Counted from the stretch's first letter, positions 1 through 15,873 are shown. The stretch is DNA of 16,545 nt from Candidatus Bipolaricaulia bacterium (GCA_046758705.1 JBHIAT010000073.1:1-16545); one strand, 5' to 3'. Notes: generated by a model not told the origin, from the letters alone. Numbers and translations: made by a program.

Positions 1-108
1 ACCAATTTTCTGATCAGCACGTTTGGCGAAGACGAAGCCGGTGAACTCTACTTAGCCCACCACGATTCTAGCGGGACGATCTATCACATCGTCAGTGGGG
101 GCGATTGA
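1..108 (+). CDS. 3' end of a PQQ-dependent sugar dehydrogenase (glucose/sorbosone dehydrogenase family beta-propeller), partial
   Basis: Frame 1 reads TNFLISTFGEDEAGELYLAHHDSSGTIYHIVSGGD*. ISxFGEDxxGELY...GxIY is the typical last blade of this family. Truncated by the window edge. Confidence 0.75.
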   Translation, partial: TNFLISTFGEDEAGELYLAHHDSSGTIYHIVSGGD

Positions 109-116
109 ATGGCCGG

Positions 117-1130
117 CTATCCGCCGATGTAGGACATCTCTATCTTAGGCAGCCCGACGGTCTCGGACGAGCGGATCTCCGAGTAGCGGTCGTCGCGGCC
201 CCGCCAGATCGAGGTGATCGCTTCGGAGATCTCGGCGTCGGAGGCGCCGCTGCGGAGCAGCTTGCGCAGGTCGTGGCCCTTGGTCGCGAACAGGCAGGTG
301 TAGAGCAATCCATCGACCGAGAGCCGGGCGCGGGTGCAGCTGCGGCAGAACGCCTGTGTCACCGAAGCGATGACGCCAATCTCACCACTCCCGTCCTGGT
401 ACCGCCAGCGGTTAGCAACCTCGCCGTGGTAGTTCGGCTCGCGCGGCTCGAGCGGCATCACGGCGTTGAGCATGCCGATGATCTCGGCCGCGGGAACGAC
501 GTCGTCGAGCCGCCAACCGTTGGTGCTCCCGACGTCCATGTACTCGATGAAGCGGAGGATGTACCCGGTCTTGCGAAAGTAACGGGCCATGGGCACCACG
601 CTCTGCTCGTTAACGCCGCGCTGCACCACCATGTTGATCTTGATCGGCGTGAGACCCACGGCGGCCGCCGCCTCGATCCCCTCCAGGACGCGTTCGACGG
701 GGAAGTTGACATCGTTCATGGCTCTGAAGACGGCGTCATCAAGTGAGTCGAGGCTCACCGTGATGCGCTGCAGCCCGGCATCCTTGAGCATCTGTGCCTT
801 CTTCGCAAGCAGCGAGCCGTTGGTCGTCATCGCCAGGTCGAGCCCCGGGATGCGCGCCAGCATCTCGATGAGCCGTTCCACGTTGCGGCGCACGAGCGGC
901 TCCCCCCCCGTTATACGGATCTTCTTGACGCCGTGGGCGACGAAGATTCGGGCGAGGCGTTCGATCTCCTCGAAGGTCAGCAGCTCGTCGCGCTCGAGAA
1001 ACTGGTACTCGCGGCCGAAGATCTCCTTCGGCATGCAGTAGACACAGCGGAAGGTGCAGCGGTCGGTGATCGAGATCCGCAGATCGCGAAGCGGTCGCCC
1101 GAAAGTGTCGATGAGACTCACGATTGTCAC
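117..1130 (-). CDS. moaA: GTP 3',8-cyclase MoaA (molybdenum cofactor biosynthesis, radical SAM)
   Basis: [16 protein letters not shown] (CxxxCxxC), TGGEP, RFIEYM, second-cluster motif CxxC...C ([18 protein letters not shown]) and the C-terminal GG (MSYIGG). Confidence 0.97.
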
Positions 1131-1987: not shown

Positions 1988-2902
1988 TTACTCGATCCCG
2001 GTAAAGAACTCAAACCATCGGTAGATCTCAAACCAGGAAACGATCTCCCCGATCCTGACTTTGACCGCTACCACCGGGTCGAGTTTCTTGCTGAGCAGAT
2101 AGAACCCCTCGATGAACGGAAGATCCTCCTCACGTTCCTTCACTCTGGCCAGTCGCTTTTGCCCTTCTTTCTTCGGGACATCGGTCTCCGTATAGATGGG
2201 ATAGTATCGAAATCCTTGAGGATTGAACGGTTTTAGTTCGATGCCCGTCTCCCGTTCGATGATGCGCTTGGGCGCGGCCCTGAAGAACAAGCTCTCCAGG
2301 AACGAAGGGCTGTTTCCATCACGGATGCTCAGGCGCAACTGTTCTTGGGTGCAGTGAGCGCAGATTTTCGGATCGGTCAGAACCAGCCAAGCGCGCCGAT
2401 GACCACACACGTCGCAGATGTTCGCCGCCTCGATCCGTCGCTCGGTTTTGGCAGCGAACCGAGCGACCGACCAGGCAACGGTTCCCACCAACAGGCTCCC
2501 GACCATCCATTGTCCCAGACCATCCAGCCAGACGATCGACGATCCACTTACCAGAAGCTGCAAGATGGCGATCGCTTTGATCGTCCCTAAAACGGCCGCC
2601 AGGGTCCCGGCCGTCCACAAAACACGGTCGGCCAACCAGTGAAGCACTTTGAAGGCGCCTTTGCACTTGGCCAGCACCCGAACGGCTAGCCGGACCTCCG
2701 GTGCCGGTTTATCCTCTTTCCAGGGCTGGCGATCGTGCTCCCGGATGATCTGGCACACCTCTCCAGCGAGTTGGTTCCACTCATCCTCCCCCAGTCCCGT
2801 CTTGAATCGAGCATGTTCCAGGATTGTCTCATGCCAGTTCCTCGGTTCTGTCCCGACGGCACCCCTTCTCTCCTTGCCCACGTCAGGGACAACCTCCCTC
2901 AT
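1988..2902 (-). CDS. Hypothetical membrane protein with two hydrophobic segments and a CxxC-x14-CxxC putative zinc ribbon
   Basis: 304-aa ORF with a strong SD (AAGGAGGGGG) and its own promoter. Hydrophobic stretches VLWTAGTLAAVLGTIKAIAILQLLV and WMVGSLLVGTVAWSVA, followed by CDVC...CAHC. Confidence 0.75.
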   Translation of the reverse strand: MREVVPDVGKERRGAVGTEPRNWHETILEHARFKTGLGEDEWNQLAGEVCQIIREHDRQPWKEDKPAPEVRLAVRVLAKCKGAFKVLHWLADRVLWTAGTLAAVLGTIKAIAILQLLVSGSSIVWLDGLGQWMVGSLLVGTVAWSVARFAAKTERRIEAANICDVCGHRRAWLVLTDPKICAHCTQEQLRLSIRDGNSPSFLESLFFRAAPKRIIERETGIELKPFNPQGFRYYPIYTETDVPKKEGQKRLARVKEREEDLPFIEGFYLLSKKLDPVVAVKVRIGEIVSWFEIYRWFEFFTGIE

Positions 2903-2933
2903 GACTCCCCCTCCTTTTCTGTAGTAGTTTTCA

Positions 2934-2962
2934 ATTTTAGCATAGCAGAACCGTCCTTACAA
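2934..2962 (-). promoter_or_regulatory. sigma70-type promoter for the 304-aa hypothetical gene
   Basis: Minus strand TTGTAA-17 nt-TAAAAT with an extended -10 TG. Confidence 0.6.
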
Positions 2963-2984
2963 CTGCAAATACTTCCGACCTGAC

Positions 2985-5708
2985 TCAACCGCCACGCGCC
3001 AGGATCGTCCGCTTGACCACTTCGACCCCCAGCAATCCGGTCGAGGAGACGGCCAGCACGATGAGCCAATCGTGGAGATTCAGGGGGACAGTACGGAAGG
3101 CAGACTGCAGCGACGGTGTGTAGATCACCAACAACTGCAGCAGGATCGAGGAGAGAACGGCCAGGATCAGGTAGCGATTCTTGAACGGACCGATCTCCAG
3201 GATCGAGTGACGATCCGATCGACAGTTGAACGCGTTGAACATCTCGAACATCACCAGCAAGGTGAATACCATCGTCTGGGCTTTGGTATAGGCGTCCCCA
3301 GTTCCGAGCGTCGGGTTGTACCAATAGAAGATGGGTAGCGTACTGATGGTCATCAGGATCGCCATGGTGATGATGATCGCCTTCACGCCTGGGGTGAAGA
3401 TGCTCGCATGGGAGGAGCGGGGCGCACGCTGCATGATATCAGGATCGGGAGGATCGATCCCGAGCGCGAGCGCGGGGAGGCCGTCGGTCACCAGGTTGAC
3501 CCACAGGATCTGGATCGCAGCCAACGGGAGCGGGAAGCCCAGCAACCCGGCGAACAACATCACCAGGATCTCCCCCACATTGCTGGAGAGCAGATAGGCC
3601 AGATACTTCTTGATATTGTCATAGATCCCCCGCCCTTCTCGAGCTGCCTCCACCAGCGTGGCATAGTTATCATCGGAGAGGACCATGTCAGCGGCCTCCT
3701 GGCTCACCGCGGTCCCGGTGATCCCCATTGCCACCCCGATGTCCGAGCTTTTGAGGGCCGGGGCGTCATTGACCCCATCGCCGGTCATCGCCACCACATG
3801 GTCGTTCGCCTGAAGTGCGTTGACGATCTTCATCTTGTGCTCCGGAGAGACCCGCGTGTAGACCGAGATCTCCTCCACCACCCGCTGGAATGCCTCATCG
3901 CTTATCCGCTCCAGTTCTTCCCCGCTGAGCACCCGGCCGTGATTCAGGATGTCCAGCTCCCGGGCCACCGCCATCGCGGTGAGCCGATGGTCACCCGTGA
4001 TCATCACCGTTTTGATTCCCGCCCTCCGGCACAGCGCCACCGACCGTTTCGCCTCCTGTCGTGGCGGGTCGATCATGCCCATCAGACCGAGGAAGACAAG
4101 ATCCTGCTCCACCGTCTCTTCGGTGAATACCCCCAGGGACGGGGAGAGTTCCCGGTAGGCAAGCCCCAACACCCGAAGCGCCTCTCCGGTCATCCGCTCG
4201 TTGGCCTCCAGGATCGCCTCCCGTTTTGACTTACGGAGTTCGATCGTCTCTCCGTCTGCGGCTCGAAATCGGGAGCACCGTTCCAGAACCATCTCCAGAG
4301 CACCCTTCATATAAGCGAGTTTTCTCCCATCGGGAGCGACATGAACGGTAGACATGCGCTTCCGTTGCGAATCGAACGGGATCTCACCGACACGCAGATA
4401 TTCCGATCGGATCTCCTCCGGGACCAGACCGCCTTTCATCGCCACCACCACCAGCGCCCCTTCGGTCGGATCCCCGATCGATTCCCAGCGACCCTCCTCC
4501 TGTCTCAGCTGTGCGTCATTGCAGAGCAGTGCCACATGGAGCAGGGGGGCGAGTTCCCTCTCACTCACATCCTCGGCGGCGATCTCCCCGTCCGGATCGT
4601 AACCGGTCCCGGTGACTTCGATGTTCCGGCTGCCGACATAGATCCGGCGTACGGTCATCTCCCCTCGGGTCAGGGTGCCCGTCTTGTCCGAGCAGATCAC
4701 CGTTGTGCTGCCCAGCGTCTCGACAGCGGACAGCCGTCGAACGATCGCATTGCGACGGGCCATCCTCTGGACGCCGATGGCCAGGGATCCGGTCACCACG
4801 GCGGGCAATGCCTCCGGGACAGCGGCGACCGCCAAACTCACCCCCCAGATGAACATATCGAACAGCCCCTGGCCCCGGAGGATACCGAGGGCGGACACGG
4901 CGGCGACGACGATCAGGGCGGCGATCCCCAGCCACCGGCCCAACTCCCCCATGCGACGTTCGAGCGGTGTTTTCGGCTCTTCGATCGTCTGGAGCATTCC
5001 GGCAATCTTTCCGAACTCGGTCTCCATCCCCGTTTCCACCACCATCGCCCGGCCCCGACCGTAGGTCACGATCGTGCCGGCGAACACCATGTTCTCTCGC
5101 TCGGCCAGCGGGACAGACGTGGGAAGAACGTCGGGATGCTTGCTAACTGGCGTCGATTCTCCGGTCAGCGGTGCCTCATCGATCTCCAGGTTGAAGGCCT
5201 CGATCAACCGGGCATCGGCGACGACCCGGTCCCCGGTCTCCACGACCAGCAGATCGCCGGGCACAACCTGTGCCGCCGGGATCTCGAGCTCGACCCCGTC
5301 ACGGACGACTCTCGCCGCCGGAGCCGTCATCTGCTTTAACGCCTCGATCGCTCGTTCCGCCCGGTATTCTTGAATAAAGCCGAGAGCCACCGAGGCGATC
5401 ACGATCGCCAGAATGACGCCCGCATCGAGGGCCTCGCCGATCAGAAACGAGACCAGCACGGCAATCAGCAGTAGGATTATCAGGAAGTTTCTGAACTGGC
5501 CCAGAAGCAGTTTGAGGGGGTTGGATCCTGCTTCCCCGCGCAACTCGTTTGGACCGTATTCGTCGAGGCGGCGCGCCGCCTCCTCCGCACTCAACCCTTC
5601 CTCGCCTGAGTTCAGATATTTCAGCAGCTGAGCCACCTCAAGCGCGTACCATATTTCACCTGTGACCATCGGAAATTCTGTGCTGATTTTACCATATCGA
5701 TCGCCCAC
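2985..5708 (-). CDS. Cation-transporting P-type ATPase, Ca2+-type (P2A, PacL/YloB-like)
   Basis: TGES, AVAAVPEALP, phosphorylation site DKTGTLT, KGA, MITGDH, TGDGVND, SSNVGE and QILWVNLVTDGLPALALG. The start may instead be the ATG at 5669. Confidence 0.95.
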   Translation of the reverse strand: MGDRYGKISTEFPMVTGEIWYALEVAQLLKYLNSGEEGLSAEEAARRLDEYGPNELRGEAGSNPLKLLLGQFRNFLIILLLIAVLVSFLIGEALDAGVILAIVIASVALGFIQEYRAERAIEALKQMTAPAARVVRDGVELEIPAAQVVPGDLLVVETGDRVVADARLIEAFNLEIDEAPLTGESTPVSKHPDVLPTSVPLAERENMVFAGTIVTYGRGRAMVVETGMETEFGKIAGMLQTIEEPKTPLERRMGELGRWLGIAALIVVAAVSALGILRGQGLFDMFIWGVSLAVAAVPEALPAVVTGSLAIGVQRMARRNAIVRRLSAVETLGSTTVICSDKTGTLTRGEMTVRRIYVGSRNIEVTGTGYDPDGEIAAEDVSERELAPLLHVALLCNDAQLRQEEGRWESIGDPTEGALVVVAMKGGLVPEEIRSEYLRVGEIPFDSQRKRMSTVHVAPDGRKLAYMKGALEMVLERCSRFRAADGETIELRKSKREAILEANERMTGEALRVLGLAYRELSPSLGVFTEETVEQDLVFLGLMGMIDPPRQEAKRSVALCRRAGIKTVMITGDHRLTAMAVARELDILNHGRVLSGEELERISDEAFQRVVEEISVYTRVSPEHKMKIVNALQANDHVVAMTGDGVNDAPALKSSDIGVAMGITGTAVSQEAADMVLSDDNYATLVEAAREGRGIYDNIKKYLAYLLSSNVGEILVMLFAGLLGFPLPLAAIQILWVNLVTDGLPALALGIDPPDPDIMQRAPRSSHASIFTPGVKAIIITMAILMTISTLPIFYWYNPTLGTGDAYTKAQTMVFTLLVMFEMFNAFNCRSDRHSILEIGPFKNRYLILAVLSSILLQLLVIYTPSLQSAFRTVPLNLHDWLIVLAVSSTGLLGVEVVKRTILARGG

Positions 5709-5759
5709 AGGCTATCGCCTATCTGGGGATGAGATGGGGAACCAGCCGTCCCGCACCCC

Positions 5760-6506
5760 TCACTCCACGTTCCAGAGGGGATTCCGCCCACCGCGTTTGA
5801 TCAAGGGGCGGTGATACTCCATCCCGGTGAACCGCCAGATCGCCTCCCGCCATGAACGGGCCTCCTCTGGGGTCACTTCCTCATCAACGTTATAGGACTG
5901 CTTGCGCTGAAGCTGATACAGCCGTTCTTGGAGCGCTTCCAGTCGGGCGAGGTGATCCTCGATCAGGAAGGCACGCAGCTCGGGCTTCCGGATCTCCTCA
6001 ACAGCCATCTCAACATGGGGGTTGCACAATCCGTCCGAGGCAATGAACTGCTCCCGCCAGCTCTCATCTTCGTCTTCCAGGACGTCGAGTAGGGATAGGA
6101 TTGTGAGACGACCTCCTTGGGTGGATTGGCACAGCATGCATACCTGTGGTCCCGGTGACATCCGGTCTGAGATCGGCCTGCGTACCGATCGACGAACGCC
6201 GGAGAGGATGTCAGCCTGATTCGCCTTATGGAGAAGCTCCACATATCGCTTGACCACCGTCTCGTAGATCCGGGCGACGCCTGCCATGCCGATCAACTCC
6301 CGCTCCTCCACCACCTGGACCATAAGATGGGCATGATATCGACACAGTCCGAGGGCTTCGTCGAAACGGGTCCGAAGCCCGGGATCACCGGTAAACTCAT
6401 ACAGCATCGACCAGATCCAACGCTCCTCATTGAGATGTACCAGACGGCAGATAGAGCATCCCTCAAGTCGAAATGCCCGTTTGAGATCCGATCGGATGAA
6501 GGTCAA
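5760..6506 (-). CDS. DUF6062-family protein (two CxxC...LCxxH putative Zn sites)
   Basis: GCSIC...GLCRYH and CMLC...GLCNPH, with the C-terminal RKQSY...EEARSWREAIWRFTG pattern. TTG start with SD GAGGAGG overlaps the upstream stop (TTGA). Confidence 0.8.
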   Translation of the reverse strand: MTFIRSDLKRAFRLEGCSICRLVHLNEERWIWSMLYEFTGDPGLRTRFDEALGLCRYHAHLMVQVVEERELIGMAGVARIYETVVKRYVELLHKANQADILSGVRRSVRRPISDRMSPGPQVCMLCQSTQGGRLTILSLLDVLEDEDESWREQFIASDGLCNPHVEMAVEEIRKPELRAFLIEDHLARLEALQERLYQLQRKQSYNVDEEVTPEEARSWREAIWRFTGMEYHRPLIKRGGRNPLWNVE

Positions 6507-7462
6507 TGCGGTTCCCCCTCCTCATGAGACCTCAATAGCGGAATGACCGGAATCAGGGTCAGGCGCTCCAACTGAAGCGCCTCCGGCTGCAAAGAAGCGA
6601 TCTCGGTCTCAGGGTCGGAGATAGGAATAGAACCACCTCGTCGAAAACTCGGTCTCATACGAAGGAGGAGCAGACGGACGAAATGACCTGAGGTTCTTGG
6701 AACCCGCTGCAAGGTGGATCGGATCACCCCAGCGTGCCCTGCCAGAAACGCCCGGAGTTGGGGAAGGTTGACAGGAATTCTGACCCGCGGCAGGTCTCGG
6801 AAGAGCTGGAACGTAGCGCCCCAGCCGTCACCTCGGATACGGTCTTCCATGACCGGCAGATCCGTGAGGTGGTAGGTGCCGAAGATGCGCTTACGATCCG
6901 CAGAGGAAGCGTCGACTCGCTCCCCTCCTGACAGCCGCTCCGCAATGGAGGCGAAGCAGTGGTTGAGAAAGACCGGGAAGACCAACGCCACCCGTTTATG
7001 GAGCTCGTAGATGATCTGTCGATCGTCAACCCCGAGAGACGGGACCGTGCGGCGAAGGAGTCCTTCGAACCGGTCTCTCACAATCGATTCGGCAAACCAC
7101 CGGTTGAGATAGTGGGTGTAAGCGATCGGCTCTAAGGCGGCCAGATCGGGGCAGACTAAGAAAGCGAAGAGCGAGGTGCGCAGTTGCTCGGTGAATCCTG
7201 CAGAGGTGCCCGGCAACGGGACTCGGCCGATCGGCACGAACAACTCCCGGTCCTTGCCCTCCCCGATGATGACCGTTACGTTGATCTCCGAGAGCGCTCC
7301 ATAGCGGCTCACAGTCAGGCCGGGGGTCTTGGCAAGGCTCACCCGCGCCAGCTCCGGCAGGGTGTAGGCGCGACGAGCGCACAACCTGAGAATATTCAGG
7401 CGAACCTCGGTTCTGAGCATCCAACGGCGGAACTCCTGTCTTGAGGACTGAAGGATGATCAT
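6503..7462 (-). CDS. Hypothetical protein (~319 aa from ATG 7462; alternative in-frame TTG start at 7561)
   Basis: Long open frame whose stop overlaps the DUF6062 start. The predicted ATG at 7630 lies inside the fluoride aptamer, so it is unlikely to be the real start. No family recognised. Confidence 0.6.
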   Translation of the reverse strand: MIILQSSRQEFRRWMLRTEVRLNILRLCARRAYTLPELARVSLAKTPGLTVSRYGALSEINVTVIIGEGKDRELFVPIGRVPLPGTSAGFTEQLRTSLFAFLVCPDLAALEPIAYTHYLNRWFAESIVRDRFEGLLRRTVPSLGVDDRQIIYELHKRVALVFPVFLNHCFASIAERLSGGERVDASSADRKRIFGTYHLTDLPVMEDRIRGDGWGATFQLFRDLPRVRIPVNLPQLRAFLAGHAGVIRSTLQRVPRTSGHFVRLLLLRMRPSFRRGGSIPISDPETEIASLQPEALQLERLTLIPVIPLLRSHEEGEPH

Positions 7463-7492
7463 TCGATCCCGATCCTTTGGATCCGACCGCGG

Positions 7493-7561
7493 ATCGGAGA
7501 TCCTGTGGCGAAGAGCGGTGCCAACGACACCCCTGATTCCAACGATGAGCCGCTTGAGCAA
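7493..7561 (-). pseudogene. Possible relic of the crcB/Fluc fluoride channel N-terminus, in frame with the downstream hypothetical ORF
   Basis: SD GAGGTG, 6 nt, then TTG giving MLKRLIVGIRGVVGTALRHRISD. This resembles the Fluc TM1 motif (LLVGxGGxxGAxLRYxxS) and lies directly after a fluoride riboswitch. Confidence 0.45.
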
Positions 7562-7589
7562 CAGAGCCACCTCTTTATCGAGAGGGTAG

Positions 7590-7635
7590 GTAGGAGTCAT
7601 CAGCCTAGGGGCGGTTAGGGCGAACTCCATCGCCC
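7590..7635 (-). ncRNA. Fluoride riboswitch (crcB RNA motif)
   Basis: Minus strand GGGCGAUGGAGUUCGCCCUAACCGCCCCUAGGCUGAUGACUCCUAC. P1 GGGCGA/UCGCCC, pseudoknot GGAGU/ACUCC, P2 GCC-CCUA-GGC, and conserved GAUG, AACCGC, GAUGAC..CUAC. Confidence 0.93.
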
Positions 7636-7646
7636 GAAGCTATTTC

Positions 7647-7675
7647 ATTGTACCCAAGAGAAGCTCAGATTTCAA
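7647..7675 (-). promoter_or_regulatory. sigma70-type promoter driving the fluoride riboswitch leader
   Basis: Minus strand TTGAAA-17 nt-TACAAT. The predicted start (~7640) is a few nt upstream of the aptamer. Confidence 0.75.
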
Positions 7676-7710
7676 GGGAAAAGCCTGCTAGGCCCGCGGT
7701 CCCCGCTCGC

Positions 7711-8889
7711 TCACGGGACAACCGGCATCACGTCCGAACGCTCCTTGAACCGGTCCCTGAATCTGAGAAACAACACCACGGGGATGACGCCGACGAAACC
7801 GCCATAAACAAAAGTTGCCGTGGGCGCCACCGTGTGCCATAAAAACCCGGCGATCAAACTGGCCGGTAACGCAACCAACCCAACGGTTGTGTGAAAAGCC
7901 CCCAACACGGTCGCTTTTAACTCCTCCGATGACAGTTCGGAGATGAAAGCCCTCTGGTTGCCGTCGATCATCGCATGTACCAGGCCATAGAGAACGAATA
8001 GAACGATGAACACAGGCAGGGAGTTGGACAGGGCAAAGCCGAGAGAGGTTAACGAAAACAGAAGATATCCAGAGATGATCACCTTCCCTCTGCCGATCTT
8101 ATCGGAAAGAACCCCGAAAGGGGCGGCAAAGAGCCCGTAAAAAACGTTAAACAAGGTATACAAGATGATCGGCATTCCGACCGATGATCTGCCGGTAAAC
8201 AGCTCCTGGGCTTTTAGGATAAAGAACATGTAACTGAAGTTCGCCAACCCGAAGATACCGGCTATGAGAATGAACCACCTGATGGAGACAGGCAGATCTT
8301 TTATCCCCACGTTCAGCGTCCTATCTTGAGGTTTCCCCCTCCGTTCTGTGACAAAGCGGAGCGGGATGAGCGAAAGGAACGATAAAATAGCGGCAATGAA
8401 TATAATGGATCTGAAGTTCAGCCGCAAAAACCAAAATAGCACGAAAACGACCCCGGCTCCCAAAATGGCACCGGAGGTATCCAAAGCCCGATGGATTCCA
8501 AACCCCTTGCCCAGCTCTTTTGGCATGGAATCGGCGATAATCGCATCCCTGGCGGGGGTTCTCAAGCCCTTTCCCACCCGCTCGATCCCGGAAAAGATCA
8601 GGATATGCTGCCATATCGATGAGAAAGAGAGGAGCAGTTTGGAGATCGACGAGATGAGGTAGCCTGACCGGACGAATATCTTCCTTTTTCTCGTTTTATC
8701 GGACCAATAGCCGGAAAAAACATTGAGGAGACTCGTTATACCCTCTCGTAATCCCCCGATCAATCCCACGACCAAGCCGGTGCCACCCGATGCCGTGATA
8801 AACATGGGCAGGATCGGCATGATCATCTCACTGCTTAAATCGTTCAGAAAACTGACGATGCCCAGCAGGAATACATTGGCTCTTTTCAA
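7711..8889 (-). CDS. MFS transporter (12-TM, substrate unknown)
   Basis: MFS motif A twice (GYWSDKTRKRK; GVLSDKIGRGK), ERVGKGLRTPARDAII and about 12 hydrophobic segments. TTG start. Confidence 0.92.
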   Translation of the reverse strand: MKRANVFLLGIVSFLNDLSSEMIMPILPMFITASGGTGLVVGLIGGLREGITSLLNVFSGYWSDKTRKRKIFVRSGYLISSISKLLLSFSSIWQHILIFSGIERVGKGLRTPARDAIIADSMPKELGKGFGIHRALDTSGAILGAGVVFVLFWFLRLNFRSIIFIAAILSFLSLIPLRFVTERRGKPQDRTLNVGIKDLPVSIRWFILIAGIFGLANFSYMFFILKAQELFTGRSSVGMPIILYTLFNVFYGLFAAPFGVLSDKIGRGKVIISGYLLFSLTSLGFALSNSLPVFIVLFVLYGLVHAMIDGNQRAFISELSSEELKATVLGAFHTTVGLVALPASLIAGFLWHTVAPTATFVYGGFVGVIPVVLFLRFRDRFKERSDVMPVVP

Positions 8890-8915
8890 CTATCCATCCT
8901 TGGCAGGCAAACCCC

Positions 8916-10082
8916 TTACCGTTCGTCGATTGGGATATAGCTTGCTTGTATCGGACCGATATAACGGAATCGCGGCCGGAACAGCCGGTTCTCCTCCAAC
9001 TGCTCCAGAATGTGAGCCGTCCAGCCCGCTATCCGGCTCACGGCGAAGATCGGGGTGTAAAGATCCGGTTCGAATCCCATATAGTAGTAGACCGTGGCGG
9101 AGTAGAAATCGACATTGGGAAAGATCCCCTTCTCCCCGAGGCGGTCGACGACCGCCTTCTCGATTCGCCGGGAGATCTCATACCAGGTGATGTCCCCCTG
9201 GATCTCGGCGAGCCTCTTTGAGTATCGGTTGAGGATCCGGGCCCGTGGGTCGTAGGTCTTGTAGACTCGGTGACCGAAACCCATGATCTTCTGGTGGTGG
9301 GCAAGCGCTTCCTCGACGTACGTCTCCGCCTTCTCGACGTCACCGATCTGCAATAGAGTCTGCATCACCTCACGGTTCGCCCCGCCGTGGAGCGGTCCTT
9401 TCAGGCTGCCGACCGCTGCGGTCACCGCTGAGTAGATGTCCGTCAGTGTCGAGATGGTCACGATCGCCGTGAACGTCGAGGCGTTGGAGCCGTGATCCGC
9501 ATGGAGGATCAGCGCCACATCCATGACTCGGGCGGTGTAATCATCGGGAAGGGTGCCGGTCAGCATGTAGAGGAAGTTGGCCGCATGTCCGAGCTCCGAG
9601 TTGGGCGCCACCGGCTCCTGCCTACGGCGCAGCCGTTGGATAGCGGCCACGATCGTCGGGGACCGGGCGATGAGCCTGACCGCTTTGCGACGGATGGCCT
9701 CCGGGCTATGATCCTCGGCTTCCGGATCGTACACCCCCAGCGCCGAGATCGCGGTGCGCAGCACGGCCATCGCAGGTGTCTTGGTATTTTGCACATGCAG
9801 ATCCTTCAGCACCTGGAGCACCTCGCCGGGCAACGCCCGGTTGGCGGTGAGTTCCGCCTTGAACCCCTCCAGCTCATCCCGGTTGGGAGGCCTGTGATGG
9901 AGGAGCATATAGGCGACTTCCTCGAAGGTTGACGCCTCGGCAAGCTCCTCGATCGGGATGCCTAAATAGGCGAGCACACCCTGCTGACCATCGATGTAGC
10001 TGAGCTCGCTCTCCCCAATGATTACCCCTTCCAAACCTTTCACCGCCTCGACCGCATTCTGTCGCTGTTTCCCATCTGTCAC
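8916..10082 (-). CDS. gltA: Citrate synthase (citrate/2-methylcitrate synthase family)
   Basis: KGLEGV, HADHGSNAST, GPLHGGAN, IMGFGHRVYK, DPR, PNVDFYS and RP. GTG at 10082 has the SD AGGAGG and is preferred over the TTG at 10103. Confidence 0.93.
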   Translation of the reverse strand: MTDGKQRQNAVEAVKGLEGVIIGESELSYIDGQQGVLAYLGIPIEELAEASTFEEVAYMLLHHRPPNRDELEGFKAELTANRALPGEVLQVLKDLHVQNTKTPAMAVLRTAISALGVYDPEAEDHSPEAIRRKAVRLIARSPTIVAAIQRLRRRQEPVAPNSELGHAANFLYMLTGTLPDDYTARVMDVALILHADHGSNASTFTAIVTISTLTDIYSAVTAAVGSLKGPLHGGANREVMQTLLQIGDVEKAETYVEEALAHHQKIMGFGHRVYKTYDPRARILNRYSKRLAEIQGDITWYEISRRIEKAVVDRLGEKGIFPNVDFYSATVYYYMGFEPDLYTPIFAVSRIAGWTAHILEQLEENRLFRPRFRYIGPIQASYIPIDER

Positions 10083-10698: not shown

Positions 10699-11346
10699 TC
10701 AGCGAACATCCACAATCTGGATGTCGGCTGCTTTCAGTTCCCAGATGATCTCCTCCGTGTTCCCCTGCGCTACCATCCGGATCACGACCTCGCGTCGGTT
10801 CGGCGGGCCCGGATGGAGATGAGAGGAGGCCAGGCTCAGGATGTTCACATGGTGATCTCTGATCGGTTCCAACACTTGAACCAGAGCCCCCGGCTCATCC
10901 TTCAGTTCAATCGTCAGCCGGGTCCCACCCTCCTCGAACCCCATCACCTCGATCAGCACGACAAAGATGTCGGACTCGGTGATGATTCCCACCAACCCTT
11001 CCTGGCCACCGACGACCGGCAGGCCGCCGACCTTGTGCCTGCGCATCTTCACCGCCGCCTCCTCGATGGTATCCTGGGGCCTGACGGTGACCACCTCCCG
11101 ACTCATCACCTCCTCCACCGTCGTCTTGGCCAGCAGGTAGTTCAACTCCCAGATGCTCAGGCTGGTCGCATCCGAAGGGCCTGCCTCCTGAATATCCCCC
11201 TGGGTTACGATCCCCACCAGTTTCTCACCCTTCATCACCGGCAGCCGGCGGATGTTGTGTTGTCTCATGGTCTCACGAGCGTCCATGATCGGCGCCTCCG
11301 GCGACACGGTGACCACATCGCGGGTCATCCACATTTCGATGAACAT
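10699..11346 (-). CDS. CBS-pair + ACT domain protein (AcuB-like), copy 2
   Basis: Same architecture as 1153-1800 (about 60% identity by manual alignment). SD AGGAGG. Confidence 0.9.
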   Translation of the reverse strand: MFIEMWMTRDVVTVSPEAPIMDARETMRQHNIRRLPVMKGEKLVGIVTQGDIQEAGPSDATSLSIWELNYLLAKTTVEEVMSREVVTVRPQDTIEEAAVKMRRHKVGGLPVVGGQEGLVGIITESDIFVVLIEVMGFEEGGTRLTIELKDEPGALVQVLEPIRDHHVNILSLASSHLHPGPPNRREVVIRMVAQGNTEEIIWELKAADIQIVDVR

Positions 11347-13641: not shown

Positions 13642-14100
13642 TCATCCCGTCACTTCGACGATATTTTGGGGAGTTCCATTGAGGAACGCTTCGATGTTGG
13701 CAACCGTCGTCTCTAAGATTCGCTCCACCGCCTCCCGGCTGAGCAGTTGCTTCTCCTCCTTAATCAACGCCTCTTCCTCCAGCACATCCAAGCCGGCCCC
13801 CCCAACGATCCCCCGGTCGAGTCCCCAGACGAGCGCGAACGTGCGTTCATAGGCCTTGTGCACCTTGCGGGACAGTGACAGAATCAGGGCGAACGTGTGC
13901 TCAGCCACCGTGTTGTCGCCGTAATACGGGACGTTGGTGACGACCACGCCGCGCTCCCGGCAGGCGTCGAGATCGATGTGATCGTAGCCGGTCGACCGTG
14001 TTGCCACCAGCTGAACGTCGGGCAAGGCGTTGAGCGTATCAACGGTGATCTCGGAGTAGATGAACGGGGAGAGGACGGTGATCCCTTGGGCGAACACCAT
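13642..14100 (-). pseudogene. Internally deleted D-2-hydroxyacid (D-lactate-type) dehydrogenase remnant
   Basis: Retains ATRSTGYDHID, NVPYYGDNTVAEHTFALIL, GAGLDVLEEE and the C-terminal helix. Lacks the N-terminus, the GxGxIG NAD motif, NTARG and the catalytic TPH. Confidence 0.85.
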
Positions 14101-14215
14101 ACCGGGGCCGCCGCCAACATAGGCGGGCCCGAGCTCGATCAAAATCGAGACGTAACTCTATTTAGCACAACTGCTATCACGAAGTCAAACGCCCTTCGAT
14201 TCCAGTCCACTGTGA

Positions 14216-14267: not shown

Positions 14268-14537
14268 ATGGCAGAAAAGAAAACCACGGTGGAAGTGGAG
14301 GACGTCGAGGGCAGTAAACTCATCGACAGGGTCGGTGAACTCCTTCACGAAGCTCGGGTACGCCGGATCAGTATCAAGAACAAGGAGGGCAGGACCCTGT
14401 TGGACATTCCCCTTTGGGGAGGAGCTGTGGCGGCGGTGATAGCCCCGATTATGGCAGCTGTAGGGGCGGCTGCAGCTCTGTTAGTAGGGGGCCAGATTGA
14501 AGTCGAAAGAGAGGAAGAGGAAGAAGGAGAAGAGTAA
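14268..14537 (+). CDS. DUF4342 domain protein
   Basis: LIDRVGELLHEARVRRISIK...LLDIPL..GAVAAVIAP.MAAVGAAAALL...IEVER matches the family pattern. Promoter and SD present. Confidence 0.85.
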   Translation: MAEKKTTVEVEDVEGSKLIDRVGELLHEARVRRISIKNKEGRTLLDIPLWGGAVAAVIAPIMAAVGAAAALLVGGQIEVEREEEEEGEE

Positions 14538-14543
14538 GATTGT

Positions 14544-14812
14544 GTCAATGACCCGCCCCTCAAGGAGGCGGGCTTGCCATGGCGATAGCAACGTAAGCAT
14601 TGACTAGGAGGAGTTTGCCATCCTAATGCAAAGCCAATGGCAAACTAAACGCATTGCAGGCTACAAGGACGGCGGAGTGCACGACCTGGCTCCGCCCGCT
14701 CCGGCAGAATCGCTTAATGCCACGTCTGTCCATCACAACCGTCAACACCGCCGACAGACTAAGCCTGCTTTGCCCCTCGAAGGTCACTCAACAGGTCCAC
14801 GGGAGCCTGGCC
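14544..14812 (+). ncRNA. omegaRNA (HEARO-like) scaffold for IsrB
   Basis: Stems GTCAATG/CATTGAC (14544-50/14598-604), AGTTTGCCAT/ATGGCAAACT (14612-21/14637-46), GGCGGAG/CTCCGCC (14671-77/14690-96) and GTCTGTC/GACAGAC (14724-30/14753-59). Possible pseudoknots GACCT/AGGTC and GAGG/CCTC. The 3' end is approximate. Confidence 0.8.
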
Positions 14813-14814
14813 GT

Positions 14815-15873
14815 ATACCGGCACTCATTCCCGTGCTCCACCAGGATGGTACCCCGCTTACGCCTTGTAAGCCAGCCAAAGCCCGCAAGTTGCTCCGGGG
14901 CGGTGTGGCAGAAAAGCACTGGAACAAGCTCGGTCATTTCTACATTCAGATGCGGGTCGAGACGGGCAAAGAGACACCGGAGATGTGGTTGGCGGACGAC
15001 CCCGGTTCGCAGTTTGACGGGATCGCGGTCGCTTCTCATCAGCGGGTTCAAACGACCGCTATGCTGGAATTGCCCACCGGGATCGCCAAGAAGATGACCA
15101 ACCGGAGACAACTCAGACGGGCCCGGCGGTATCGCAAATGTCGCAGGCGACCGAAGCGATTTGACAATCGCCACCGACCGGAGGGTTGGACAGCTCCCTC
15201 GCAGAAAGCCAAAGTGGACTTCCGGCTGAAGGTGATCGGTGAGCTCTATAAGCTCTATCCGATTGCTGGTGCTGTGGTCGAGGATGTGCGATTTAACCAC
15301 TATCGCAACCGTTGGGGCAAGCACTTCTCCACGGTCGAGATCGGGAAAGCTTACTTCTATGCCGAGCTAAAGAAGCTCGGTCAGCTGAAGCTATACGCTG
15401 GCTGGGAGACGCAGGAAGAACGCGAGAGGCAGGGCTTGAAGAAAAGCAAGTCCAAGCGTAAGAGGACACCGGAGAGCCATGTGGTGGATGCGGTAGCGAT
15501 GTTGTCTCGATGGCTGGGGACAGCTGACCTGCGCGTGCCCCAGTTCTGGGTGTTCAAGCGACCGAATGTGCGCAGGCGCAGCCTCCACCTTCAGAACCCG
15601 GCCAAGGGAGGGGTGCGACGGGGGCATGGAGGGACAGCTGCGTTAGGCATCGCCAAGCACACGGTTTGTCTTTGGAAAGGGCAGCTGTATCGAACCGGGG
15701 GGTCAACGGGAGGCCGGCTGAGTTTGCACGATATGACACTGGAGGCGAAGCGGGTGGTGCGGCACGCCAAAGTGGAGGAGTTGACATTGTTGTTCAAGCA
15801 ATCGATATTGGGAATGGAGGTGAAATACAAGCCTGACGGCTTGCAGCCAATTCCCCCTTCTCCGTCCCCCTGA
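14815..15873 (+). CDS. isrB: IsrB RNA-guided nickase (RRXRR/PLMP + split RuvC, no HNH)
   Basis: PLMP domain (IPVLHQDGTPLTPCKPAKARKLL), RuvC-I DDPG, Arg-rich bridge helix RRQLRRARRYRK..R..RFDNR, RuvC-II VVEDV and RuvC-III SHVVDA, with no HNH insert; about 350 aa. The start codon is uncertain (ATA 14815, GTG 14833, or ATG 14626 inside the omegaRNA). Confidence 0.88.
   Translation: MPALIPVLHQDGTPLTPCKPAKARKLLRGGVAEKHWNKLGHFYIQMRVETGKETPEMWLADDPGSQFDGIAVASHQRVQTTAMLELPTGIAKKMTNRRQLRRARRYRKCRRRPKRFDNRHRPEGWTAPSQKAKVDFRLKVIGELYKLYPIAGAVVEDVRFNHYRNRWGKHFSTVEIGKAYFYAELKKLGQLKLYAGWETQEERERQGLKKSKSKRKRTPESHVVDAVAMLSRWLGTADLRVPQFWVFKRPNVRRRSLHLQNPAKGGVRRGHGGTAALGIAKHTVCLWKGQLYRTGGSTGGRLSLHDMTLEAKRVVRHAKVEELTLLFKQSILGMEVKYKPDGLQPIPPSPSP

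Follow-up and report, generated by a model that had tools for sequence, protein, structure and literature searches.

Fluoride riboswitches are the main guide to the ways in which microbes cope with fluoride, and they have revealed the Fluc and CLC-F exporters. What does such a riboswitch control when no exporter gene follows it? The question is raised by a stretch of 16,545 nucleotides (nt) from a Candidatus Bipolaricaulia bacterium (GCA_046758705.1, JBHIAT010000073.1:1-16545), called the window below. In it, a fluoride aptamer precedes an operon of three genes on the minus strand (2985..7675), namely open reading frame (ORF) 1, encoding a protein of an unnamed family, a gene encoding a DUF6062 protein, and a gene encoding a P2A-type cation ATPase. 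An earlier reading of the sequence, here called the original prediction, had described this as a non-canonical operon and possibly an undescribed fluoride-response module. It is likely, in our judgement, that a canonical fluoride riboswitch with its own promoter switches on a conserved ORF1/DUF6062 unit, that this unit takes part in the response of Bipolaricaulota-like bacteria to fluoride stress, standing in other genomes with NhaP-type exchangers and Mrp-type complexes, and that the ATPase is a lineage-specific addition.

The riboswitch and its leader

At the Rfam gathering threshold, the sole match in the whole window is the fluoride family RF01734. It scores 61.7 bits, the cut-off being 34, at E 2.7e-15, and the match is untruncated, spanning positions 1-64 of the 64-position model. 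The consensus aptamer originally placed at 7590-7635 is the core of this match. Alignment to the family consensus shows both helices, P1 and P3, as well as the pseudoknot that joins the P1 loop to the 3' tail.

For comparison, one genome per species was scanned with the DUF6062 alignment (tblastn), which yielded 25 loci from other genomes, L001-L025. When the window aptamer is aligned with 17 aptamers from these loci, 94% of the cells are paired, the slid controls reaching 50.5% at most. Compensatory changes on both sides occur in nine of the 13 pairs, three of them in the pseudoknot. The aptamer is very likely functional and serves ORF1 and DUF6062.

The sigma-70-like promoter of the original prediction, TTGAAA-17-TACAAT, was recovered by the consensus scan, matching the consensus at 10 of 12 positions and ending 4 nt before the aptamer match. 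By-eye inspection shows -10-like hexamers at the equivalent spot before most related aptamers. The scan covers sigma-70-type sites only, and its two sites, against 1.4 ± 1.0 in shuffles, are not above chance overall. The only operator-like inverted repeats near the promoter are the P1 helix and, at 7682..7711, a weak palindrome.

The Shine-Dalgarno sequence GAGGTGG (7573..7567) starts 11 nt past the aptamer and is followed by a 5-nt spacer and an in-frame TTG (7561..7559). The hexamer CCCTCT (7586..7581) can pair with AGAGG (7574..7570), which overlaps the Shine-Dalgarno sequence, and in the predicted fold the Shine-Dalgarno sequence pairs with this CCCUCU, right after the aptamer, in either state. 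Most of the related loci share the layout, that is, an aptamer, about 10 nt, a GGAGG-like motif and a start codon. In the free-state minimum-energy folds of six platforms, L002, L004(-), L006(-), L013, L016 and L025(+), 9-12 bases of the aptamer tail, including the pseudoknot strand, pair with the Shine-Dalgarno region; as modelled, this is the classic translational ON design. The accessibility of the Shine-Dalgarno sequence in the folding model rises in all 12 platforms, in part because the rise is built into the constraint. For this reason a shuffled-tail control was added. In five of the 12 platforms the real tail cuts the accessibility beyond nearly all shuffles, with at most seven of 60 shuffles as low.

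Transcription termination was considered as the platform of the window and set aside, as the scan yields no terminator-like site: their number in 2700..8000 is zero, compared to 3.4 ± 2.1 in shuffles. A different solution is seen in L003 (2920-3030, plus strand), where a perfect terminator hairpin uses the pseudoknot strand, overlaps the aptamer tail and is followed by a run of seven T. Hence the platform of L003 is transcriptional, unlike the translational layouts seen in most of its sister loci. In layout the window resembles the translational switches, and ORF1 may therefore be controlled at the level of translation.

The operon layout described originally is confirmed in the sequence and by the scan. 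The stop codon of ORF1, TGA at 6505..6503, and the start codon of DUF6062, TTG at 6506..6504, overlap within the 4-nt sequence TTGA, and a spacer of 51 nt separates DUF6062 from the ATPase. From the aptamer to the 3' end of the ATPase gene, no promoter-like (sigma-70-type) and no terminator-like site was found. This holds for the spacer as well, where the fold z-score is -0.19. The ATPase is probably on the same transcript as ORF1 and DUF6062.

The proposed mechanism would begin with fluoride binding, which folds the aptamer pseudoknot, as in this validated riboswitch class. Folding would then expose the Shine-Dalgarno sequence, and ORF1 would be translated from TTG 7561; we infer this exposure from the layout, and it is clear in the relatives and unclear in the window. 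DUF6062 would be made through translational coupling at the TTGA overlap. The ATPase would be reached by read-through depending on ORF1 translation, and its fluoride dependence, if any, could come from translation-dependent protection of the transcript, the weakest step of the scheme.

Linkage of ORF1 and DUF6062 to fluoride aptamers

Pfam confirms the chosen DUF6062 ORF in 20 of the 25 loci, and the alignment profile recovers DUF6062 in all 25. The remaining five are L004, L006, L014 and L019, where the DUF6062 ORF was not among the ORFs given to Pfam, and L023, a fragment without a Pfam match. At the gathering threshold, nine of the loci contain 12 fluoride aptamers, and 11 of these lie directly 5' of the DUF6062-holding operon or of an adjacent gene of the ORF1 family. 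Six DUF6062-holding operons are headed by an aptamer. It stands immediately before DUF6062 in L003, L004 and L006; a short ORF of 82-87 amino acids (aa) intervenes in L024, and a Na+/H+ exchanger and a universal stress protein (Usp) do so in L002 and L025. In five loci (L004, L006, L012, L015, L016) a gene that converges with DUF6062 has an aptamer some 20 nt in front of it, and the ORF1-family profile identifies this gene as an ORF1 homologue.

Relaxed thresholds add five loci with matches of 25-30 bits, below the cut-off but on the right strand, and no other fluoride match anywhere in the loci scanned at these thresholds. They are directly 5' of DUF6062 in L005, L008 and L011 and of an ORF1 homologue in L007 and L013. 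The former three represent a variant with P1 formed by GGAU/AUCC (GGGU/AUCC in L011) and with the tail CUAAUG in place of CUGAUG. These fluoride-like variants head operons of DUF6062 and an Mrp antiporter; a Rex-like gene intervenes in L005 and L008.

In total, 14 of the 25 DUF6062 loci are linked to a fluoride aptamer, nine at or above the cut-off and five below it. The ORF1 family is linked without exception: all ten genes seen with their context, in the window and in nine loci, stand behind an aptamer match, eight at or above the cut-off and two below. The original prediction had also envisaged the case of homologous cassettes never linked to the riboswitch, and the neighbourhood survey shows the opposite for these 14 loci. 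It had expected from this operon a first functional lead for DUF6062 and the ORF1 protein, and the linkage provides one.

ORF1 and DUF6062 are adjacent in nine of the 25 loci. Of the 26 contexts (the loci and the window), 16 have DUF6062 but no ORF1. Three arrangements of the pair are observed. ORF1 precedes DUF6062 in the window; DUF6062 precedes ORF1 in L024, also with a 4-nt overlap, and in L002; the genes are convergent, with touching or overlapping 3' ends, in L004, L006, L007, L012, L013, L015 and L016. In the tree of the ORF1 family, the tandem and the convergent genes form separate clades. In the DUF6062 tree, built without the L023 fragment, the aptamer-linked sequences are found on both sides of the deepest split, and a tree with the linked sequences as one clade is rejected (approximately unbiased test, p 8.9e-5). 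This pattern resembles that of a functional link more than that of inherited synteny.

The neighbours of DUF6062 fall into a few classes. Na+/H+ exchangers (Na_H_Exchanger, NhaP-type) are found beside it in L002, L003 and L025, with Usp in two loci, Mrp- or Mbh-type complexes in L001, L005, L008, L011 and L024, and NagD-like hydrolases of the haloacid dehalogenase (HAD) type in L007, L017, L018 and L019. These are classes known from the fluoride regulon (PMC2864571, PMC11139923).

Three details of the loci may be added. In the Fraserbacteria locus L025, a second fluoride aptamer (14872-14943, minus strand, 45.1 bits) heads an unrelated operon 6 kb away, consisting of DUF4129, DUF7269, DUF58 and a MoxR-type AAA ATPase, a set outside the classes named in the fluoride-riboswitch literature examined. 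L001 contains a second, partial DUF6062-like ORF (2-352, plus strand), which the family profile matches at E 6.6e-10; the main copy lies 8 kb downstream of it, beyond an Mrp/complex-I-like cluster. The ORF1 homologue of L007 (8617-9364, minus strand) is split into 8903-9364 and 8617-8976, by a frameshift or an assembly error.

Table 1. Features of the window operon, and elements of the related loci discussed in the text.
Feature	Sequence	Position	Strand	Basis
Sigma-70-like promoter TTGAAA-17-TACAAT	window	7647..7675	-	consensus scan
Fluoride riboswitch aptamer RF01734 (P1, P3, pseudoknot)	window	7584..7643	-	Rfam covariance model
Presumed expression platform	window	7559..7586	-	sequence, fold, layout common to relatives
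ORF1, unnamed family	window	6503..7561 (352 aa from TTG) or from ATG 7462 (319 aa)	-	
DUF6062 protein, 248 aa, two CxxC...CxxH motifs	window	5760..6506	-	PF19538
DUF6062-ATPase spacer, 51 nt	window	5709..5759	-	
P2A-type (SERCA/PMR1-like) cation ATPase, 907 aa, apparently intact	window	2985..5708	-	Pfam and NCBIfam
Variant fluoride-like aptamer, 25-28.5 bits	L005	6976-7039	+	
Variant fluoride-like aptamer, 25-28.5 bits	L008	7736-7799	+	
Variant fluoride-like aptamer, 25-28.5 bits	L011	6191-6254	+	
Dynamin-like GTPase	L012	5594-8226		
Dynamin-like GTPase	L015	5959-8627		
Dynamin-like GTPase	L016	6097-8621		
Dynamin-like GTPase (fragment)	L013	3-1507		

The two proteins

The ORF1 frame is open over 6503..7630. 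All homologues start at the position equivalent to ATG 7462, which yields the product of about 319 aa proposed originally; the TTG start would add 33 residues. The G+C content of this extension by codon position (0.67/0.48/0.64) resembles that of the remaining ORF1 (0.63/0.46/0.71). The family is very small, with four homologues in 5.8 billion clusters and, in a profile search, 24 representatives in 1.84 billion, counting the window's own protein. ORF1 has no Pfam match at E up to 0.01 and no NCBIfam match.

The AlphaFold2 model of ORF1 is of good formal quality, with a predicted local distance difference test (pLDDT) score of 86.8 and a predicted template modelling score (pTM) of 0.88. Foldseek yields no match to it at E up to 0.001. 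The best one is 3u1d_B (E 0.017, probability 1.00, template modelling score (TM) by target 0.49), and the listed matches are mostly winged-helix regulators of the GntR-like, ArsR, MarR and PadR types. The resemblance is confined to the first ~100 residues, which superpose on 3u1d, 1uly and ZitR/AdcR. ORF1 differs from these regulators in lacking sequence-level membership and in carrying a long insertion (residues 40-58), and nothing matches the 200 residues at its C-terminus. A feature search of the Atlas retrieves HTH_5/HTH_24/MarR_2 clusters at score 0.86, a lead only.

The DUF6062 protein of the window matches PF19538 with 45.4 bits (gathering cut-off 27). It has 34 close homologues besides itself, and the named ones come from Bipolaricaulota/Acetothermia, Fraserbacteria and Chloroflexi. 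Each half of the protein contains CxxC, 34 residues and CxxH; among 28 sequences, C17, C20, C55, H58, C123, C161 and H164 are invariant and C126 is conserved in at least 90%. The halves align to each other at BLASTP E 7e-4, and the protein is, as judged by its sequence, an internal duplication. Two Cys3His metal sites, with zinc as the likely metal, are a reasonable prediction from these residues. One repeat matches, weakly at E 0.078, the sequence of ribosomal protein bS18 in its zinc-binding form, the CxxC...CxxH residues being aligned, a hint only.

The AlphaFold2 model of DUF6062 is all-helical (pLDDT 73.2). In a structure search of the Atlas, the fold is near dynamin-family clusters (TM by query 0.67-0.68, again a lead only). 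In L012, L013, L015 and L016, a gene for a dynamin-like GTPase of 600-640 aa abuts or overlaps the DUF6062 start, which suggests a link of DUF6062 to membrane remodelling. Sequence similarity of DUF6062 itself to the adjacent dynamin-like proteins was looked for and not found, the hhalign probability being 0.13. No DUF6062-dynamin fusions are seen among the longer proteins, which is weak evidence.

What could the pair do? We tentatively picture it as a regulatory or adaptor couple, in which ORF1 might bind DNA and DUF6062 might be its metal-binding partner, extending the fluoride response to ion-transport genes. It is conceivable, although doubtful, that ORF1 and the DUF6062 subfamily form a dedicated and so far unstudied two-protein fluoride-response system, with ORF1 as a DNA-binding protein induced through the riboswitch and DUF6062 as its zinc-binding partner. 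Were it so, fluoride stress would be relayed to Na+/H+ exchangers, Mrp complexes and, here, a Ca2+ pump, and the pair would constitute either another level of regulation beneath the riboswitch or a new kind of protection that does not depend on exporting fluoride.

The cation ATPase and alternative readings

The ATPase contains the Pfam domains Cation_ATPase_N, E1-E2_ATPase, Cation_ATPase, Hydrolase and Cation_ATPase_C, and exceeds the cut-offs of two NCBIfam equivalogs, TIGR01522 (PMR1-type, 827 vs 798.3) and TIGR01116 (SERCA-type, 717.7 vs 703.4). The strings DKTGT, TGES and GDGVND are all present in the translation; they are the catalytic motifs of P-type ATPases, with the phosphorylated Asp in DKTGT. 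By the family cut-offs the protein would be a Ca2+-type pump, and transport of Ca2+ (or Mn2+) is predicted. A recent insertion of the gene was considered and rejected, since the G+C content is 0.58-0.64 throughout the region with no break. Just downstream, the window encodes a 304-aa protein without a Pfam or NCBIfam match (1988-2902, minus strand), and the promoter-like site TTGTAA-17-TAAAAT at 2962..2934 belongs to this ORF.

Several observations weigh against the reading preferred here, that of a riboswitch acting on ORF1 and DUF6062 with the pump added locally. Of the 25 loci, 11 (L001, L009, L010, L014, L017-L023) have no fluoride aptamer even at the relaxed thresholds, L010 being represented by just ~110 nt of upstream sequence. 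Close relatives are present among the linked loci (L004/L006, L012/L013, L005/L008), and thus the number of independent cases is smaller than 14. As regards the leader, the folding model does not single out the window's aptamer tail as what hides the Shine-Dalgarno sequence (the accessibility was equal or lower with 51 of 60 shuffled tails), and the fold of the leader is no stabler than shuffles (z -0.33). The start at ATG 7462 shared by the homologues lies ~120 nt past the aptamer, and hence TTG 7561 is only a presumed start. For the proteins, the ORF1 family profile has zero matches among the PDB sequences at E up to 10, no Pfam helix-turn-helix (HTH) model matches ORF1, so that the winged-helix interpretation, with its best Foldseek E of 0.017, is weak, and conservation is highest from R95 to W122, past the winged-helix part. 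Because no HTH sequence model matches and the conserved stretch is elsewhere, we do not assign ORF1 to any regulator family. The DUF6062 fold has no structural match in PDB (best E 0.12), and metal binding is proposed from its motif only. Finally, neither Pfam (208 ORFs: 120 and 88 of the remaining 114) nor tblastn of the window ATPase against the complete 280,601 bases finds a P-type ATPase in the 25 related loci. The comparison thus lends no support to a control of the pump by fluoride, and a translational switch would not act on the pump directly.

The last point bears on the part of the original prediction that gave the Ca2+-type ATPase its role in a fluoride-response module. This part is not supported, as the pump is not the centre of a conserved module. 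The notion of an undescribed module survives for ORF1 and DUF6062, which are recurrently linked to the switch. The ATPase, to judge by the compared sequences, is not part of the conserved unit and is a local, lineage-specific occupant of the place of a cation transporter. Whether it shares the fluoride control is evenly balanced; the case for it is that the gap is 51 nt and no terminator-like or promoter-like site was found.

It is quite possible, though not probable, that the riboswitch controls ORF1 alone, with DUF6062 following by coupling, and that the ATPase is expressed separately, is unrelated to fluoride and merely happens to be downstream. Its absence from the related loci agrees with this, as do the translational appearance of the switch, which has no terminator and has a Shine-Dalgarno sequence right after the aptamer, the 51-nt gap, the weak ribosome-binding context at the ATPase start, and the restriction of the promoter scan to sigma-70-type sites. 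However, the ATPase gene is on the same strand and close by, no terminator-like or promoter-like site lies in the spacer or ahead of it, the spacer has no notable structure, and relatives often have another cation transporter behind or beside DUF6062 within the riboswitch-headed operon (L002, L003, L025 and, with sub-threshold aptamers, L005, L008, L011). The reverse proposal, which comes from the original prediction and makes the ATPase the functional core, overproduced against metal-fluoride poisoning or exporting Ca2+ to trap fluoride outside, we find improbable. Metal fluorides do inhibit P-type ATPases, and the confirmed operon layout is compatible with such a role. That fluoride-sensitive enzymes of phosphoryl transfer (enolase, pyrophosphatase, HAD-fold phosphatases) are overproduced is a theme of the literature, and links of fluoride to divalent-cation transport or calcium fluoride sequestration have been described as well (PMC11139923). 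But the pump is missing from all 25 loci while ORF1 and DUF6062 recur, hence the conserved, selected unit is not the pump. Neither of the two mechanisms is supported by the comparison, and the passages, titles and abstracts covered describe no such link.

Two further alternatives concern the pair and the aptamer. ORF1 and DUF6062 could be accessory, assembly or membrane-stress factors for cation/proton transporters or for dynamin-like GTPases. The frequent occurrence of DUF6062 without ORF1, its position at the head or tail of transporter operons, the dynamin-like genes abutting it in four loci, and the proximity of the folds in the Atlas, a lead only, are all in line with this. Nevertheless we consider it unlikely, given the low hhalign probability, the lack of fused forms, which is weak evidence, and the winged-helix-like domain of ORF1, which better suits DNA binding. 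Least of all do we expect the aptamer to be an orphan that remained after the loss of a crcB or CLC-F operon and stands before ORF1 by accident. The original prediction was right that the window has no crcB/Fluc or CLC-F gene (none of all 75 ORFs of at least 60 aa matches Pfam CRCB or Voltage_CLC), and this is what an orphan would leave. Yet this is an intact aptamer with a high score, preceded by a promoter-like site and followed by a Shine-Dalgarno sequence and a start codon, spaced as in the relatives, and an aptamer match precedes every ORF1-family gene with known context.

Compared to the CrcB/Fluc and EriC-F/CLC-F operons, the preferred reading of the window operon retains the aptamer class, the 5' leader position and the expected fluoride-ON logic, whereas the exporter gene is replaced by two uncharacterised families and a cation pump. 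The operon is non-canonical in this sense, as originally stated; it is less so in its transporter, since a 2024 review counts ion transporters, divalent-cation transporters included, among the over-represented genes of fluoride-related operons (PMC11139923). Fluoride riboswitch operons with Na+/H+ antiporters, Usp, HAD-fold phosphatases and formate-hydrogenlyase/Mrp-like complexes are also on record (Weinberg 2010, PMC2864571; PMC11139923; CD0656-7 of C. difficile, PMC11477304). The related loci resemble these operons, combining the aptamer, NhaP, Usp and DUF6062 in L002 and L025, the aptamer, DUF6062 and NhaP in L003, and the variant aptamer, DUF6062 and Mrp in L005, L008 and L011; the window differs in having a P2A ATPase where the relatives carry antiporters. 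In the yybP-ykoY Mn2+ riboswitch of Streptococcus pneumoniae MgtA (PMC6649816), a riboswitch also lies upstream of a P-type Mn2+/Ca2+ ATPase. However, the aptamer class and the ligand are different, and there the pump is reported to export the ion that is sensed and stands directly behind the switch, while in the window two genes intervene and fluoride is not plausible as a pump substrate.

In the literature searched, the term DUF6062 is absent, and neither DUF6062 nor the ORF1 family is named as a member of a fluoride regulon; the lists of Baker et al. 2012 may hold these proteins as 'hypothetical'. A fluoride-switched P-type ATPase is not described in the passages, titles and abstracts covered, and co-mentions of the two terms, where examined, are unconnected. 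The riboswitch is ordinary as an RNA, and the novelty, within this literature, lies in the genes controlled. The Ca2+ pump adds little by itself, being a single case among the already described ion transporters of fluoride operons. The ORF1 family, behind an aptamer in all ten contexts seen, is a strong candidate for an undescribed part of the fluoride response, and so is DUF6062, linked in 14 of the 25 loci and in several independent arrangements. Both proteins are small and soluble, and confirmation of their role would provide the first function for DUF6062 and a non-export mechanism, which would be relevant to engineered fluoride tolerance for the degradation of organofluorine compounds.

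The window neighbourhood as a whole is rich in ion-homeostasis genes. The same-strand run just upstream of the riboswitch consists of TrkA, TrkH, CBS-ACT (10699-11346), Usp, citrate synthase and an MFS protein. The CBS-CBS-ACT protein has a paralogue at 1153-1800; both are encoded on the minus strand, are 215 aa long and are 60% identical. At 14626-15873 (plus strand) there is a 415-aa RRXRR protein resembling the RNA-guided endonuclease IscB, with 150 bits for Pfam RRXRR and 134.6 bits for NF040563, under the cut-off of 175 of the latter. It adjoins a truncated D-2-hydroxyacid dehydrogenase (166 aa, with the NAD domain mostly gone) and a DUF4342 ORF, the coordinates beside it being 13642-14142 (minus strand) and 14268-14537 (plus strand), and this region may be a scar of a mobile-element insertion.

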